A DNA stretch of 32,000 nt, from positions 65,447 to 97,446 of the forward strand of contig NETF01000173.1 of the NCBI GenBank assembly GCA_002172675.1. The letters are read 5' to 3'. Numbering within the stretch: the first letter of the stretch is position 1; every line of letters begins with the position of its first letter. The stretch is from an unicellular cyanobacterium SU3. GTDB lineage: Bacteria; Cyanobacteriota; Cyanobacteriia; Cyanobacteriales; Microcystaceae. Both the position numbers and the translations under genes were made by a program. Of this stretch, positions 9,017-27,996 are shown piece by piece. The notes beneath the pieces were generated by a model, which was not told the DNA's origin, did no database searches, and was given only the letters and a program-made list of their open reading frames with translations.

Positions 9017-9571
9017 ATGACACGAAACACTTATCAATGGACAATTGAACACTATCATCAAGCGATCGCTGCTGGATGTTTTGAGGATCAAGAGGTAGAA
9101 TTATTAAAAGGAGAAATTATTGTCATGACACCCGAAAGAGAAAGTCATGCTTACTATAATTCAGAATGTGCTGATTATTTAAAAGATTTACTGAAAAATC
9201 GCGCTAAAATTCGAGATGCTAAACCGATAACTTTACCTAATAATTCTGAACCCTCTCCAGATATTGCTATTGTTAAACCCTTGGGAAAAGAATATTTACA
9301 ACATCATCCTTATCCCGATGATATTTACTGGTTAATTGAGTTTTCTAAAGCAACGTTACGAAAAGATTTAACGGAGAAAAAAGCAATTTATGCAGAAGCA
9401 GAAATCAAAGAATATTGGATAGTTGATTTAAACAATTATCAGTTAAACGTTTTTAAAAACTTAAAAGAGGGTAATTACACGACAGAATTAACCTTAACTG
9501 AGGGTAATATTAGTCCTTTAGCTTTTCCTGATATCGTTATTCCTGTACAAAAAATCATCAGTATTAATTAA
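9017..9571 (+). CDS. Uma2-family (DUF820) PD-(D/E)xK endonuclease-like protein
   Basis: EHYHQAIAAGCFEDQEVELLKGEIIVMTPERESH ... PDIAIV ... LIEFSKATLRKDLTEKKAIYAEAEIKEYWIVDL follows the canonical Uma2 motif order. Confidence 0.8.
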   Translation: MTRNTYQWTIEHYHQAIAAGCFEDQEVELLKGEIIVMTPERESHAYYNSECADYLKDLLKNRAKIRDAKPITLPNNSEPSPDIAIVKPLGKEYLQHHPYPDDIYWLIEFSKATLRKDLTEKKAIYAEAEIKEYWIVDLNNYQLNVFKNLKEGNYTTELTLTEGNISPLAFPDIVIPVQKIISIN

Positions 9572-9882
9572 TCATCTGTTTGAGTTTCTTCTTGTTTCTT
9601 TTGATAGTCTATAATTCCTTGACGAAACCCCAAAGCAACTAAAATATTAGACAAAGTTAAAAAAGATTCTGCACTACCATGTAACCAATCAATATTAGCT
9701 AATACTTCGCCATACTGAACTTTAGCATAAATTCCAGCAGGAATGGTAACAGCTACAAATACTAATAAAACATAAAACCCAATTAATGCTAAACGAGGGG
9801 TTTCTTGGGAACGAGTAAGAAACCATAAAAATCCTAAATAGGGAAATAAAGAAACTGCAAAAAGATTATCTTTAGAAAACAT
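9568..9882 (-). CDS. Small conserved membrane protein (DUF3593-like)
   Basis: 104 aa with three hydrophobic segments. LFPYLGFLWFLTRS...PRLALIGFYVLLVFVAVTIPAGIYAK...DWLHGSAESFLTLSNILV resembles the cyanobacterial/plastid-lineage DUF3593 family, from memory. Its stop overlaps the Uma2 stop (TTAA at 9568-9571). Confidence 0.55.
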   Translation of the reverse strand: MFSKDNLFAVSLFPYLGFLWFLTRSQETPRLALIGFYVLLVFVAVTIPAGIYAKVQYGEVLANIDWLHGSAESFLTLSNILVALGFRQGIIDYQKKQEETQTDD

Positions 9883-9934: not shown

Positions 9935-10606
9935 TTAACTGTTGATCCAGCTTTTTATTGCTGCGATCGCAAATGCACCAACTGGATTATCTAATGCTTT
10001 TTCTAATGCGGCAAGTCCCCCGTCTTTTGCAGCAGTAATGAGTTTATATTTTAAAGTAGGATTATTTTCTATGATTTCTATGGTTTTGATGCCTTGGGTT
10101 GTAGTATTGTTGGGATAGTCTTGAGCAACTTGTTGATAAATCGTTTGTATTTCGGTGATAGCTTCAGTTAGGTTTTGAGAATTATAGTTATAGGTTGTAT
10201 TTTTGTTTCCTGCGACGTTATCACCACTACCAGAATGGGTTTGATTAATGTTTCCTTGGGACATTGCTTTTGCCTCTACATGAATGGGTTTACTTGCTAA
10301 TTGTTTGATGATATCTAATAATTCTCTATTTTGTTGATTATTGTTTGTTATTTGAGTTGGGTTAGGGTTTATTTCTTGAATAATTTCTAGTAAAGCATAG
10401 GTGAGTCTATTTCTCTCTCTTCTAATATCTTCAGAGGATAAAATATTTAGGCGATCGCTTTTTTGTAATTGTTTTAAACTGGCAGCATGAAGGATGATTT
10501 CGTTATGATAACGAGTGTTTTCTGTTATTTGTATAAGTTGAATAATTGCAGTTTCTAAATCTCCTTGTTGGATGATGTTTTGAATATTAGTCAGTTGAGG
10601 TTTCAT
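9935..10606 (-). CDS. Two-module hypothetical protein: N-terminal helical adaptor-like domain + G/N/S/T-rich linker + conserved cyanobacterial C-terminal helical tail
   Basis: 223 aa. The start ATG overlaps the upstream stop (ATGA at 10603-10606). The N-terminus (aa 5-79) aligns with the N-terminus of the 453-aa ABC protein. The C-terminal ...NLTEAITEIQTIYQQVAQDYPNNTT...IENNPTLKYKLITAAKDGGLAALEKALDNPVGAFAIAAIKSW is a tail I recall at the ends of many cyanobacterial multidomain (e.g. pentapeptide-repeat) proteins. Confidence 0.6.
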   Translation of the reverse strand: MKPQLTNIQNIIQQGDLETAIIQLIQITENTRYHNEIILHAASLKQLQKSDRLNILSSEDIRRERNRLTYALLEIIQEINPNPTQITNNNQQNRELLDIIKQLASKPIHVEAKAMSQGNINQTHSGSGDNVAGNKNTTYNYNSQNLTEAITEIQTIYQQVAQDYPNNTTTQGIKTIEIIENNPTLKYKLITAAKDGGLAALEKALDNPVGAFAIAAIKSWINS

Positions 10607-12249
10607 TTTTCTTTTGGGAGTGATAAATGTTTAATTAATATATGTTTTATATAAGGGAATGTCAGTATATAGGCTATAGTTAGTATTAGAAAATATGTTG
10701 TGTAAAATAAATAATTTTTTTCAAATATAAATTGACCAGCAGCATTTCCAGAATATAATTCTCTTGTAATGTATATGTTAGGTGGCTGACAAGATAGTGT
10801 TGTACCATAAACCATATTCATATTGCTATTTTTCTGTAACCATAATATAATTGGAATGGGAAAAACTGCAATTATCATTTCAATTAATATTAGATTTACT
10901 ATTAAAATTATTTTGTTAAACACATACTTTTTTTGTTTTCTACTTAAATAAAATAAAAACAAAAGTAACAATAAAATAATCATGAAATAACTGGTTAATA
11001 AAATTTGTTGATTAATTAAATTTTCAACAATCTCATTTAAAATGTTTTTCCCAATAAAGACCAAAATAGGTTTAGTTAAAATTAATAATAAAAAAGCTGG
11101 AATAAATATTAAAAACATCTCTAATGAGAAATATCTAAAATATAAACAAAACCAAAATATGATAATACTAAACACTATACTTAAAAAAATAAATGATGAA
11201 TAAAAGTAGCCTAAAATTATATCATTGAAATTGAATTTGTCTTTATAAATTTGCTCAAAATAATTGTTGCATATTTCAATTGCCATTGTTAACCAGGTAT
11301 CAACTTGTTTTTTTGATTTTATTGTCTTTCCTGTATATTTATTAATCAAAGAAAATAGATTATTATATTGTCTAGAAGCAAGAGACATTAAAATTTTTTG
11401 CTTTTTTATAGAATTATAAATATTATCCATCATTTCTTTTCCTTCATATTGAGAACAAATAGGATATAGAATTTGTGTTAAAAAAGGAGATGTCAAAAAC
11501 GTTAAGAGTTTACAATCTTCAATATTATTTTCACAACTAAAATTTGTAGTGCTTTCTAAAAAATTATTTAGGAAAAAGTAATTTTCATTAAAATTGATCC
11601 AATAACTATTAGCAATAATATTTTTTTTTATTTCTTTCGATCTTATATCAAATTTCAATTGATTGACAAATCGATAATTATAATCTAATATGTTTTCATG
11701 TGCCTTTTTTTCAAATAAAAACTGTTTTTCTTTTCCTGCTTCCCTTAATGAATCCAATTGTAGTTTTTCCATATTTAATAACTTTAAAATAACTAAATCT
11801 GAAGTTACTTCAAATTCATCAATAGGATAAGTTATCATTCTTATTTTAGTAACCGTGGAAAATATTACCGCAGGTGAAGCAAGAATAATCAAACAAAGTA
11901 AATATCCAAAAATATCAAATAACCAACCTTTCTTAAAATCAACTTTACCAAATTGTTTCTCAGGATTGTAAGCAATATTATAATAAAATTGTAGAATTAC
12001 CCAACCTATAATTCCTATACTATTAATAGCAAAGAAAACTTGTCCTAATTGAATTAATGTAGTGGTATGATATAGCTTAAAACGATAAAAACAAAGACCA
12101 ATTAATAATAATAAATTAACGATTCCTACATAATAACAAAGATAGTGAATTTTCAGCGTCCATAACCTCGGATGATTTAGTAAATAGTTTTGATCTATCC
12201 GTTGCAGGAAATTAGGATTAAGAGCTTTTTTAATAGATTTTAGTATCAT
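10603..12249 (-). CDS. Orphan polytopic membrane protein (~8 predicted TM segments split by a ~200-aa soluble insert)
   Basis: 548-aa uninterrupted ORF in ~20% G+C DNA. By-eye hydrophobic segments: 3 in aa ~30-135, 4 in aa ~345-475 and 1 near aa ~515-535. A K/N/E/F-rich soluble region spans aa ~135-345. I recognise no family signature. Confidence 0.65.
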   Translation of the reverse strand: MILKSIKKALNPNFLQRIDQNYLLNHPRLWTLKIHYLCYYVGIVNLLLLIGLCFYRFKLYHTTTLIQLGQVFFAINSIGIIGWVILQFYYNIAYNPEKQFGKVDFKKGWLFDIFGYLLCLIILASPAVIFSTVTKIRMITYPIDEFEVTSDLVILKLLNMEKLQLDSLREAGKEKQFLFEKKAHENILDYNYRFVNQLKFDIRSKEIKKNIIANSYWINFNENYFFLNNFLESTTNFSCENNIEDCKLLTFLTSPFLTQILYPICSQYEGKEMMDNIYNSIKKQKILMSLASRQYNNLFSLINKYTGKTIKSKKQVDTWLTMAIEICNNYFEQIYKDKFNFNDIILGYFYSSFIFLSIVFSIIIFWFCLYFRYFSLEMFLIFIPAFLLLILTKPILVFIGKNILNEIVENLINQQILLTSYFMIILLLLLFLFYLSRKQKKYVFNKIILIVNLILIEMIIAVFPIPIILWLQKNSNMNMVYGTTLSCQPPNIYITRELYSGNAAGQFIFEKNYLFYTTYFLILTIAYILTFPYIKHILIKHLSLPKEK

Positions 12250-12310
12250 AACTTAAGTAAGTAAAATTAATTATAAAATAGCGATCATAAGATAACAATC
12301 AAATTTTTTT

Positions 12311-12330
12311 CTCCTGACTCCTGACTCCTC
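12311..12330. repeat. Tandem heptamer CTCCTGA x2 plus CTCCTC in the ABC-to-membrane-gene spacer
   Basis: ctcctga ctcctga ctcctc read directly. On the coding (minus) strand this is GAGGAGTCAGGAGTCAGGAG followed by A7. Confidence 0.5.
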
Positions 12331-12339
12331 TCTTATTAC

Positions 12340-13701
12340 TTAACTCTCAAATAACTGACGAGTTGATTGACTAATATCTCTAAAATACTTAATAGAAACT
12401 TCATGATTTGCTAAAACTTCCAAAAATTCTGCACTGCTAACAGAAATAGGAACATAAAGAATAAAATTGCTACCAGATTCCTTAATCTTACTACAACCTA
12501 TTGGTTTCAACAGATTCATTAATAATTCTTGACTAACATCACAATTAATCTCATATATATTACAATTTCTATCCTTCTGAAACTCCGACATCAAACCATT
12601 ATATTTTGCTTCTCCATCCTTCAAAAAGATAATTTTATCTGCAATACTTTCTACCTCATATAAATGCTGTGAGCTAATAATTGCAGTTAATGGATCTTTC
12701 TGACTATTAAGAATACCTCTTAAATTTTGTAAAAATTTCCCTTGAGCATTAATATCTAAATTAGCTAATGGTTCATCAAAAACTAATAATTTTGGTTTCC
12801 AAACTAATGCTCTCGCTAAAGAAAAACGAGTTTTATAACCACTGGAAATCTCGTTCCATTTTGCTTGAGCATATTCTTCTAAACCTAACCGACTAATTAT
12901 CCAATCAACGTCATCAATATTATCTTGTCCTTTAATTCCGTTAATGGTTGCAGTAAAATGTAAATTAGTCATTAATGACCCATACCATTTCGGTAACTCT
13001 TGAGGAATATAAGCAATTTTTTGTTTAATCAAATACCAATCTTTTTTCTTATTTTTCATTAAAAGTGGATAAGTCAACTCTCCTTCACTAATAGCTAAAT
13101 CACCAGAAATTATCCGTAAAAGCGTTGTTTTACCGTTACCATTTTCTCCGACAACTGCCGTTATTTCTCCTAAATTTAATTCAATACTAATAGGAGATAA
13201 ACAAAAAATTACTCTTTTACTTTTATAAACTTTACTAATATTAATCCCTTTAACAACGGTTTGCGTTGTTTCTTCTTGTTTCCGTTTTTCCTTCAAAAAG
13301 TTCTCTTTTGCTATTTCATATTTAGTTCTAAAATCTTGAGAAGACTTTTGTTCTTGATTTTCTGAAGTATTATTTATAACTGATGTTTCAGAAATTGAAT
13401 TATTATAATCTAAATTACGTTGATTATATTCATCAATAATAGAATCCTTAAACTCTAAAATTTGTACTATTAACCTTCTAACTTCTAAATTATACTTATC
13501 ATACGCTATCACCCCTAAACGATTTTGATCATTTAAAAGTTTGTATTGATTGTTTATAACAATAACTTCTCTGCGTTTAGCACGATCAATAGAAAATTCT
13601 CTCTGAAAATCCATCAATTGCGTAGTAGCAGCATCTAAGTTATTATTAGTAATAAGTTCTTCAATTTCTTCTGATCTTGATAAAGGATCTTGAGCAGACA
13701 T
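12340..13701 (-). CDS. ABC transporter ATP-binding protein (ABC-2/DrrA-NatA-like NBD with C-terminal DUF4162-like domain) carrying an extra ~95-aa N-terminal helical domain
   Basis: Walker A GENGNGKTT, Q-loop IAYIPQE, divergent signature ISSGYKTRF, Walker B LLVFDEP, D-loop ANLD, H-switch SSQHL. The C-terminal ~80 aa ends ...STRQLFES. The NBD starts only at aa ~150, preceded by a helical domain (aa ~10-92) and an N/S/E/Q/K-rich linker. Confidence 0.85.
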   Translation of the reverse strand: MSAQDPLSRSEEIEELITNNNLDAATTQLMDFQREFSIDRAKRREVIVINNQYKLLNDQNRLGVIAYDKYNLEVRRLIVQILEFKDSIIDEYNQRNLDYNNSISETSVINNTSENQEQKSSQDFRTKYEIAKENFLKEKRKQEETTQTVVKGINISKVYKSKRVIFCLSPISIELNLGEITAVVGENGNGKTTLLRIISGDLAISEGELTYPLLMKNKKKDWYLIKQKIAYIPQELPKWYGSLMTNLHFTATINGIKGQDNIDDVDWIISRLGLEEYAQAKWNEISSGYKTRFSLARALVWKPKLLVFDEPLANLDINAQGKFLQNLRGILNSQKDPLTAIISSQHLYEVESIADKIIFLKDGEAKYNGLMSEFQKDRNCNIYEINCDVSQELLMNLLKPIGCSKIKESGSNFILYVPISVSSAEFLEVLANHEVSIKYFRDISQSTRQLFES

Positions 13702-26922: not shown

Positions 26923-27996
26923 TTATTCATTATCAATTAATAGTTTCTCTAACATTTTAAAAGTCATGCCATAAGTAACCGTCGGTTTGTCATAACCTTT
27001 GAGATTAACCGTGTACTGAGAAAATAACTTTTCTATATTTTTAAACTCCACTGAATAGAAATAGGTATCTTCTCCAATGGCTACATCTAACCCTAATTCC
27101 TTCGTCGCTGACTCTAAGCGAAAGGCTGCGTTAACGGTGTCTCCAATAGCCGTATAATCAGGATGATCTCCACTGCCGGTATTACCCACCATCGAATAAC
27201 CCGTATTAATGCCGGCACCAATCTTTAATTCAAAGGGAACTGGATACTCTTGACTTAACTGTTTGGTCATTTGGTTAAGATCACGAACCGCTTGAAAAAT
27301 TTGCATCACATCAGCTTTAGTGACTTCATTTTCTCCATGAAACCAAATAGCCATCACCGCATCACCGATATATTTATCCACCCAACTCCCTGCGTTACGA
27401 ATAATGTCCCCTGCTTGACGAAACCAATTACCAATTAAACAGGATAGAATTTCTTCGTCTAATTGTCGTGTTAAGGTGGTAAAGTTCCTCATATCCACTA
27501 CCATCACAGACGTTAAGCGACGTTCATGTAAAACCATGGTATCGTGATCGGCAAACTCTGGAGGAGTAATATCACTGTGGTGACGGGCAGGCCCATAAAA
27601 CCCTACATCAGTCTTGCCAAAGGTCACTTTATCCCCACTTTTCAGGGTAACAGGAATACTCACACGACGCTCATTAACAAAGGTTCCGTTACGACTGCCT
27701 AAATCAATTAACAAAAAATCCCCTGTTTCAGTGGATTGCAAAATAGCATGGTTACGAGAAATACAATGATCTCCGATGACAAAATCGTTGTCTCTCCCTC
27801 GGCCAATCGTCCAATAGTTTTTACCCACCAAAGGAAAATACCGTTGACCTTTAGCAGTATTTAGCAACAGATGAGGAGTCTTGGCGAGATTATCCACAGA
27901 TGTTTGACGGGGTGGCAGTACAAGAATAATTATAGGAACAAAGCCTATTAAATTGTATGTACTCAATCGTACTGAGTTATGCAAAGGAAGCCGCAA
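26923..27996 (-). CDS. FHA-domain class III adenylate/guanylate cyclase
   Basis: FHA: WTIGRGRDNDFVIGDHCISRNHAIL...LIDLGSRNGTFVN. Cyclase homology domain: LTSVMVVDMRNFTTL...KYIGDAVMAIW...GINTGYSMVGNTG...YTAIGDTVNAAFRLES. The start is uncertain; as annotated it overlaps the upstream gene by 20 nt. Confidence 0.85.
   Translation of the reverse strand: MRLPLHNSVRLSTYNLIGFVPIIILVLPPRQTSVDNLAKTPHLLLNTAKGQRYFPLVGKNYWTIGRGRDNDFVIGDHCISRNHAILQSTETGDFLLIDLGSRNGTFVNERRVSIPVTLKSGDKVTFGKTDVGFYGPARHHSDITPPEFADHDTMVLHERRLTSVMVVDMRNFTTLTRQLDEEILSCLIGNWFRQAGDIIRNAGSWVDKYIGDAVMAIWFHGENEVTKADVMQIFQAVRDLNQMTKQLSQEYPVPFELKIGAGINTGYSMVGNTGSGDHPDYTAIGDTVNAAFRLESATKELGLDVAIGEDTYFYSVEFKNIEKLFSQYTVNLKGYDKPTVTYGMTFKMLEKLLIDNE

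Follow-up and report, generated by a model that had tools for sequence, protein, structure and literature searches.

Two EAD11 domains in a cyanobacterial operon of an ABC ATPase, a membrane protein and a helical partner: a candidate EAD-coupled conflict system

Described EAD systems and the operon in the window

EADs have been proposed as bacterial counterparts of Death-domain adaptors, and the cores so far linked with them are soluble ones of the MoxR, STAND and GTPase kinds; the published systems are the vWA-MoxR-VMAP/iSTAND ternary system and the GAP1 GTPase system (Kaur, Burroughs, Iyer & Aravind, eLife 2020, PMC7159879; eLife 2021, PMC8195603). Both the EAD concept of Kaur et al. and EAD11 as a Pfam family are already known. 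Here we describe a three-gene operon from the unicellular cyanobacterium SU3, which lies in a stretch of 32,000 nucleotides (assembly GCA_002172675.1, contig NETF01000173.1, positions 65,447 to 97,446) referred to below as the window. An EAD11 domain is found at the N-terminus of both an ATP-binding cassette (ABC) ATPase of 453 amino acids (aa) and a 223-aa protein encoded by the third gene. Unusual are the core of a transporter-class ABC ATPase and a novel membrane protein, the stable pair of two EAD11 subtypes, and the non-enzymatic, putatively tethered module of the window. We consider it somewhat probable that the operon encodes one form of an EAD11-coupled conflict system, either antiviral or serving regulated cell death, with a transporter-class ABC/membrane core, because the slot held in the window by a helical module (module B) is filled by effector enzymes in related operons.

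All coordinates are window positions and the operon is entirely on the minus strand. Features are based on open reading frames (ORFs), on Pfam matches and on AlphaFold2 (AF2) models with their predicted local distance difference test scores (pLDDT).

9935..13701, minus strand: three-gene operon of EAD11-ABC ATPase, polytopic membrane protein and EAD11-helical partner (ORF calls and kept gene order)
12340-13701, minus strand: gene 1, EAD11-ABC ATPase, 453 aa (ORF)
13444..13671, minus strand: EAD11, ABC-side subtype, aa 11-86 of the 453-aa protein (Pfam PF19964, AF2, HHalign)
13261..13401, minus strand: linker rich in N/S/Q/E, low-confidence, aa 101-147 of the 453-aa protein (AF2, family alignment)
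12577..13260, minus strand: ABC nucleotide-binding domain (NBD), aa 148-375 of the 453-aa protein (Pfam ABC_tran, E=3e-24)
12343..12564, minus strand: C-terminal alpha/beta domain of regulatory type, aa 380-453, ending in the family signature YFRDISQSTRQLF (AF2 pLDDT >90)
10603-12249, minus strand: gene 2, polytopic membrane protein, 548 aa, cognate to the ABC ATPase (ORF, hydropathy)
10603..10606, minus strand: ATGA overlap of the membrane-protein gene stop and the 223-aa gene start (sequence read)
9935-10606, minus strand: gene 3, EAD11-linker-helical module protein, 223 aa (ORF)
10370..10591, minus strand: EAD11, partner (effector-side) subtype, aa 6-79 of the 223-aa protein (Pfam PF19964, AF2)
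10211..10369, minus strand: linker rich in N/Q/T, mostly disordered, aa 80-132 of the 223-aa protein (AF2)
9938..10210, minus strand: C-terminal four-helix module B, aa 133-223 of the 223-aa protein, non-enzymatic (AF2)

As in the published EAD-coupled systems, a small, non-catalytic helical terminal domain is located on the core NTPase and on a swappable nearby effector; the effector set is also alike (TIR, caspase/CHAT, trypsin and PNPase), and the partner-side EAD11 is found beside a MoxR-like ATPase too, in one case where a caspase protein carrying it adjoins such a gene. Unlike in those systems, the core is formed by a transporter-class ABC ATPase and a polytopic membrane protein, the two subtypes are old, distinct and not closest relatives, the ABC-side copy is constant across its family even without a visible partner, and the 'effector' of the window is non-enzymatic. 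The word 'ABC' is absent from the main texts of PMC7159879 and PMC8195603. Our literature searches returned nothing on EAD11, on EADs with an ABC ATPase or transporter, or on ABC transporters with CHAT, TIR or phage defence; a prior mention in the ABC classification of Krishnan et al. (2020) is possible.

The Death-fold adaptors offer a second comparison. In both cases the proposed task of the small helical terminal modules is to recruit caspases or other effectors to a sensor, and the 223-aa protein, with two small helical modules and a linker, resembles FADD (DD + DED). EAD11 is predicted to have four helices, unlike the six of the Death fold, and a Foldseek search of EAD11 against the PDB gave no match at E<0.3.

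BceAB-BceS, FtsEX and MacB are pairs of an ABC ATPase and a membrane protein whose ATPase cycle couples to a partner protein and does not only serve transport. The first two proteins of the operon would form a pair of the same kind, and BceA is among the Foldseek matches; the membrane partner here, however, belongs to no known permease family, the coupling would be cytoplasmic through the N-terminal adaptor of the ATPase, and the NBD is nearest to the ABCA / ABC-2 type. PARIS (AriA/AriB), Septu (PtuA) and Gabija (GajA) likewise couple an ABC-fold ATPase to a separate effector, but their ATPases are soluble and SMC/Rad50/OLD-like. The matches of the window ATPase in PADLOC-DB v2 are confined to the P-loop region (E from 1e-3 to 1e-8), and its match to mad3 was treated as generic ABC similarity. 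With the Type V (ABC-2 / ABCA-like) exporters PmtCD, NosDFY and ABCA1 the operon has in common an ATPase made of an NBD and a C-terminal regulatory domain, and a partner with one or more N-terminal transmembrane (TM) helices, a large loop and a C-terminal TM cluster. It differs from them in the extra N-terminal EAD11 of the ATPase and in a membrane protein with no detectable sequence relation to ABC-2 permeases.

The two N-terminal EAD11 domains

The first-pass annotation, made from the sequence alone, had aligned the N-termini of the two proteins by hand, had guessed at an EAD family and had named TIR, caspase-like and STAND proteins as further carriers of the pattern. Its coordinates are right: 13426-13674 (minus strand) encodes SEEIEELITNNN...DSIIDEY, aa 10-92 of the 453-aa ORF, and 10370-10594 (minus strand) encodes LTNIQNII...IIQEI, aa 5-79 of the 223-aa ORF. 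Global alignment gave the same count as the hand alignment, 18 identities in 75 positions and a single gap of 4 residues, and the suspected family is EAD11 (PF19964), found at aa 6-79 of the 223-aa protein (61.4 bits, E=8.4e-17) and at aa 11-86 of the 453-aa protein (40.8 bits, E=2.2e-10), both above the Pfam gathering cut-off of 26 bits. When family profiles were compared with HHalign (21 ABC-side vs 7 partner-side domains), the two sides aligned with a probability of 96.6% and E=6.2e-10 over 76 columns, in the register of the hand alignment and with the same 4-residue gap. Hidden Markov models (HMMs) built from the orthologues of each protein matched the opposite one with E=8e-8 and E=9e-7, in the small database of window ORFs; no further window ORF was matched at E<=1 by the EAD11 HMM of either side.

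The domain comprises about 80 aa in both proteins, is predicted by AF2 to form four helices and matches no catalytic family. The helices are located at residues 2-13, 17-27, 33-52 and 58-79 of the 223-aa protein (pLDDT ~80) and at residues 6-18, 22-36, 40-62 and 67-106 of the 453-aa protein (pLDDT ~90), where the four-helix unit spans aa 6-106. Under the sequence alignment the helix boundaries of the two independent AF2 runs agree within 1-2 residues, the 4-residue insertion being located at the end of helix 2, and the position-specific EAD11 pattern is kept across orthologues. We regard it as practically certain that both N-terminal modules are homologous EAD11 domains. It is very improbable that the resemblance is purely compositional, arising between helical, coiled-coil-like, AT-rich-encoded segments without common ancestry. 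That explanation would suit the marginal BLASTP result for the two proteins (25% identity, E=0.044) and the location of both helical segments in a low-GC stretch. It was rejected on account of the Pfam matches, of HHalign and of a shuffle test, in which the Smith-Waterman score of 56 (29.4 +/- 5.6 in 5000 composition-preserving shuffles, z=4.8) was reached by only 4 of the 5000; the last two also exclude coiled-coil or low-complexity composition as the sole source of the similarity. The coinciding helix boundaries and the kept pattern speak against it as well.

The proposed recurrence of the pattern is borne out on the partner side. A search with the partner-side EAD11 profile gave 885 cluster representatives at E<=1e-3, and all 103 top matches of at least 160 aa carry Pfam EAD11. 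The most frequent domains found with it in these 103 proteins are TIR_2 (18), TIR (13), CHAT (10) and PNP_UDP_1 (4), followed by Trypsin_2 (3), Peptidase_C14 (2) and NB-ARC (2); nSTAND1, KAP_NTPase, bDLD3 and EAD7 are also present. Kaur et al. (PMC7159879, PMC8195603) describe EADs in the same domain company.

Looking at the two sides separately, the mean identity is 38% among ABC-side domains and 49% among partner-side domains, and 21% between the two groups (maximum 31%). Copies within the same operon are 17-25% identical (22% for the window pair), no closer than copies across genomes, and the partner-side EAD11 of the window is much closer to the EAD11-CHAT domain of Nostoc than to the ABC copy of its own operon. 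The two copies thus appear to represent two anciently separated subtypes. The published rule is that an EAD copy has its closest relative in the copy encoded next to it (PMC7159879); the identities found here are the reverse and imply a heterotypic EAD11 pair that has probably been maintained for a long time. The ABC-side copy, for which a precomputed EAD11 match exists in about one quarter of 120 listed ABC-family members, is a distinct, under-annotated subtype.

Exchangeable partners, the ATPase family and the membrane protein

EAD11 copies are present on genes 1 and 3 of the operon and likewise in six other cyanobacterial loci. Every cyanobacterial locus retrieved has a partner-side EAD11 gene nearby, with a variable C-terminal part; in the chromosomal loci it comes immediately behind the membrane gene, and on a Tolypothrix plasmid it is convergent and about 1 kb away. 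The partner is an EAD11-CHAT protease in the Nostoc locus, and an EAD11 with a helical module ending in a hydrophobic C-terminal helix in the second Crocosphaera, the Pegethrix and the Xenococcus loci. On a metagenome contig, an EAD11-PNP_UDP_1 protein (nucleoside phosphorylase) is encoded downstream of the family member P0105. The plasmid of Tolypothrix sp. PCC 7601 (NZ_CP064890.1; L090, 4760-9895) contains an EAD11-ABC gene, its membrane partner and a convergent EAD11-trypsin gene. Related operons therefore show that the slot held by module B in the window is taken elsewhere by a predicted CHAT protease, trypsin or nucleoside phosphorylase. Some of these enzymes are also found in cis: the fusions TIR-EAD11-ABC and trypsin-EAD11-ABC keep the EAD11 (E ~1e-29) with the enzyme in front, and in the Chryseolinea locus L045 an ORF that encodes a caspase and has an EAD11-like C-terminal part abuts the ABC gene, the caspase being apparently fused directly in front of EAD11-ABC. 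The Tolypothrix plasmid is mobilizable, has a length of 37 kb and carries its EAD11 genes beside a tyrosine recombinase and a relaxase; Tolypothrix PCC 7712 and Microchaete diplosiphon have plasmids with near-identical copies.

In the 223-aa protein of the window, EAD11 is followed by a linker region with pLDDT <50 at aa 82-90 and 106-141. A match of the linker to the antiphage NCBIfam family GapS6a (E=5e-5, 23.5 bits against a cut-off of 90) was treated as probably compositional. Module B is predicted by AF2 to consist of four helices (142-163, 168-180, 183-204 and 208-222; pLDDT ~80), and no Pfam, NCBIfam or PADLOC family was found for it. It recurs behind unrelated N-termini in the proteins P0009-P0013, and is also the C-terminal part of proteins from 33 plasmid records of cyanobacteria. 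Most of these carry the annotation of a pentapeptide-repeat protein; three were inspected and have lengths of about 680-706 aa (for example L091, 2333-4372, and L094, 3153-5273). Four records were inspected for neighbours, and in two of them (pCC7120epsilon and Nostoc ATCC 53789 pNsp_f) the next gene downstream of the module-B gene encodes a NACHT NTPase; no second copy of module B is present in those adjacent NACHT proteins or within the window. According to the model, module B would be either a non-enzymatic effector or a second adaptor.

The ATPase linker contains one predicted helix (aa 127-141), has pLDDT <50 at aa 101-125 and 138-144 and varies in length across the family alignment. The NBD that follows is complete; besides a Q-loop it contains a Walker A motif (GENGNGKT), a signature motif (ISSGYK), a Walker B motif (LLVFDEPL), a D-loop (ANLD) and an H-loop (SSQH), and its residues G185, K191, D309, E310 and Q345 are invariant across 22 aligned family members. 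The nearest solved sequences are the NBDs of ABCA1, ABCA3, ABCA4 and ABCA7, and the best full-length Foldseek matches are the ATPases TM_1403, PmtC, NosF and ABCA, in which an NBD is combined with a C-terminal domain. The 453-aa protein is therefore a transporter-class (ABCA / ABC-2-like) ATPase and not an ABC protein of SMC/OLD type.

Full-length homologues with 40-50% identity are numerous and are found in Nostoc, Microcystis, Trichodesmium, Xenococcus, Anaerolineae, Sulfurovum and Bacteroidota. A search with the family signature gave at least 584 loci in species-representative genomes; the majority of the 80 loci kept are from Bacteroidota and the remainder mainly from Cyanobacteria. The N-terminal EAD11-like domain aligns in all 22 aligned ABC family members. 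Another 47 N-termini of Bacteroidota type are too divergent for the HMM built here and align to the cyanobacterial domain as a profile (HHalign 97.0%, E=1e-10, 55 columns over helices 1-3). Based on these two sets, the ABC-side EAD11 is a constant, ancestral and largely un-annotated part of the ATPase family, and it currently goes un-annotated in hundreds of proteins labelled merely 'ABC transporter ATP-binding protein'. In three Saprospiraceae loci from metagenome-assembled genomes (MAGs; L035, L037 and L039) the EAD11-like domain is a separate ORF of 89-95 aa upstream of the ATPase, and 3-5 tandem paralogues of the membrane partner follow the one ATPase gene. In three Bacteroidia MAG loci (L012, L013 and L016, ~10.2-13.5 kb each) an Omp85/POTRA outer-membrane protein is encoded after the ABC/membrane pair, with a zinc-ribbon protein at least in L012; this hints at an envelope-spanning role of the ancestral pair.

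A polytopic membrane gene is located directly downstream of the ATPase gene in 64 of 82 non-redundant loci. The protein of the window consists of a cytoplasmic N-motif FLQRIDQNYLLNHPRLWTLKIHY, three TM helices, a loop of ~220 aa, four to five TM helices and an LSLPKEK tail. Its counterparts in other loci have the common N-motif F/L-x-R-L/I-D-x-x-L-L-L-N-x-P-x-L-W-x-x-K-x-H-Y, end in a ...LSLPK tail as well and have in common the topology of N-terminal TM helix or helices, large loop and C-terminal TM cluster. No Pfam, NCBIfam or PADLOC family was found for the window protein, and no Pfam family, that of a recognised permease included, in any of 11 membrane partners tested. All three operon proteins have their nearest relatives in Crocosphaera MAGs. 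The ATPase has a 100% identical match, P0001; for the comparison of loci, the Crocosphaera MAG locus L001 was used. There the identity is 83% for the ATPase, 86% for the 223-aa protein and only 47% for the membrane protein, in which it is mosaic, with 72-90% at aa 1-120, 25-48% at aa 121-520 and 75% at aa 521-548. The membrane partner is fast-evolving and hypervariable. L001 (7701-10004) retains parts of a second membrane gene between the ATPase gene and the intact copy, namely an N-terminal fragment of 118 aa and a C-terminal tail of 72 aa; at this site the window has only a 90-bp gap.

Possible functions and genomic setting

A mechanism can be proposed for the conflict system favoured above. 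The two EAD11 subtypes would bind each other, and this pairing would tether the 223-aa protein to the cytoplasmic face of the ABC/membrane complex. The complex would serve as a nucleoside triphosphate-dependent sensor or switch, a role that MoxR, STAND or GTPase modules have in the EAD systems described so far. An event at the envelope would be sensed by the variable membrane protein, and when ATP drives the ATPase dimer to close, the tethered effectors (TIR, caspase or protease domains) would be drawn together. If this is true, the sensor/switch of EAD systems is placed in the cell membrane, the first site met by phage or toxin, and the operon is a compact three-gene test case for the 'EAD principle', for which the same effectors occur naturally both fused in cis and tethered in trans. 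Binding studies would also gain a defined heterotypic pair in the two stable EAD11 subtypes.

The main rival to a conflict function is an ordinary ABC-2-type exporter, in which the N-domain would regulate the ATPase or dock on the membrane subunit, and the 223-aa protein would be an accessory regulator mimicking the N-domain. We think this unlikely, and a number of observations that weigh against a conflict system nevertheless sit well with it. The N-domain is constant across the ABC family, including the 47 members of Bacteroidota type, and most Bacteroidota members carry it without a detectable partner-side EAD11 gene nearby; Omp85/POTRA genes come after some Bacteroidota pairs, those of L012, L013 and L016 among them. 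Because of these partnerless members and neighbours, the ancestral role of the ABC/membrane pair and its N-domain may have been ordinary envelope transport. In the window, the partner has no enzymatic domain (EAD11 is fused to the helical module B), and the operon is flanked by housekeeping genes without defence-island genes. Further points also weaken the conflict reading: the operons depart from the published closest-relative rule for adjacent EAD copies; no PADLOC defence model fits the ATPase beyond generic ABC similarity and none fits the other two proteins; and a scan of viral contigs gave only six loci, mostly weak or at contig ends, for which reason the family is not regarded as phage-borne. 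That the two EAD11 copies bind each other is moreover something we infer, which counts on the same side; control of the ATPase and any defence phenotype are inferred likewise. What an exporter leaves unexplained is the presence of TIR, trypsin, caspase, CHAT and nucleoside phosphorylase in the same architectural slot, the occurrence of the partner-side subtype otherwise on conflict-system effectors, and a membrane protein that diverges far faster than its neighbours.

It is improbable, though in keeping with several traits of module B, that the 223-aa protein is a FADD-like double adaptor, with EAD11 binding the ABC complex and module B binding other module-B proteins encoded elsewhere in the genome (pentapeptide-repeat membrane proteins paired with NACHT NTPases), which would bridge two systems. 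Module B is small, terminal and helical and is joined to EAD11 by a long disordered linker; its recurrence at the C-terminus of unrelated proteins is an EAD-like property, and the plasmid records described above, with NACHT genes next to it in half of those inspected, point the same way. The lack of a second module-B copy in these NACHT proteins and in the window, and the different helical C-module of other cyanobacterial operons, argue against such a bridge. Taken further, the ABC/membrane family marked by YFRDISKSTR might be an unrecognised membrane-embedded NTPase core of conflict systems, which recruits or carries TIR, caspase/CHAT, trypsin or PNPase through the EAD11 subtype pair. In the window, the partner would then act as a double adaptor of the FADD kind, with module B connecting the ABC sensor to NACHT and pentapeptide-repeat proteins. 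We put forward this combined proposal only tentatively and hold it to be doubtful.

Concerning the layout of the operon, the ATGA overlap at 10603..10606 suggests translational coupling of the membrane-protein gene and the 223-aa gene. The GC content is 22-29% in the operon and 32-44% in the flanks, and a promoter/terminator scan of the AT-rich operon DNA performed no better than shuffles. The gene order is also found in the Crocosphaera MAG locus L001 and in Nostoc, Pegethrix and Xenococcus loci (conserved-order loci: L001, L007, L009, L011, L014 and L015). The flanking genes encode TamB-like, DUF2808, Uma2, DUF3593, fasciclin, Mo-nitro_C, amylase and P-type ATPase proteins, and further FeoB, RPE65, FHA-cyclase and Clp ATPase proteins. 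The upstream region differs from that of the Crocosphaera relative, and DUF3593, a 339-aa ORF and DUF2808 are common to both downstream. Immediately downstream of the operon, the gene of a putative restriction endonuclease of the Uma2 family (9017-9571, plus strand) converges on the DUF3593 gene (9568-9882, minus strand) with a 4-bp overlap. The FHA-cyclase, a fusion of an FHA domain and an adenylate/guanylate cyclase, is encoded at 26923-27996 (minus strand) and has no evident link to the operon. In the second Crocosphaera locus (L011), the next gene after that of the EAD11 partner lies on the same strand and encodes a 526-aa protein (11323-12903), which combines M23 peptidase, SH3 and glucosaminidase domains (peptidoglycan hydrolase).

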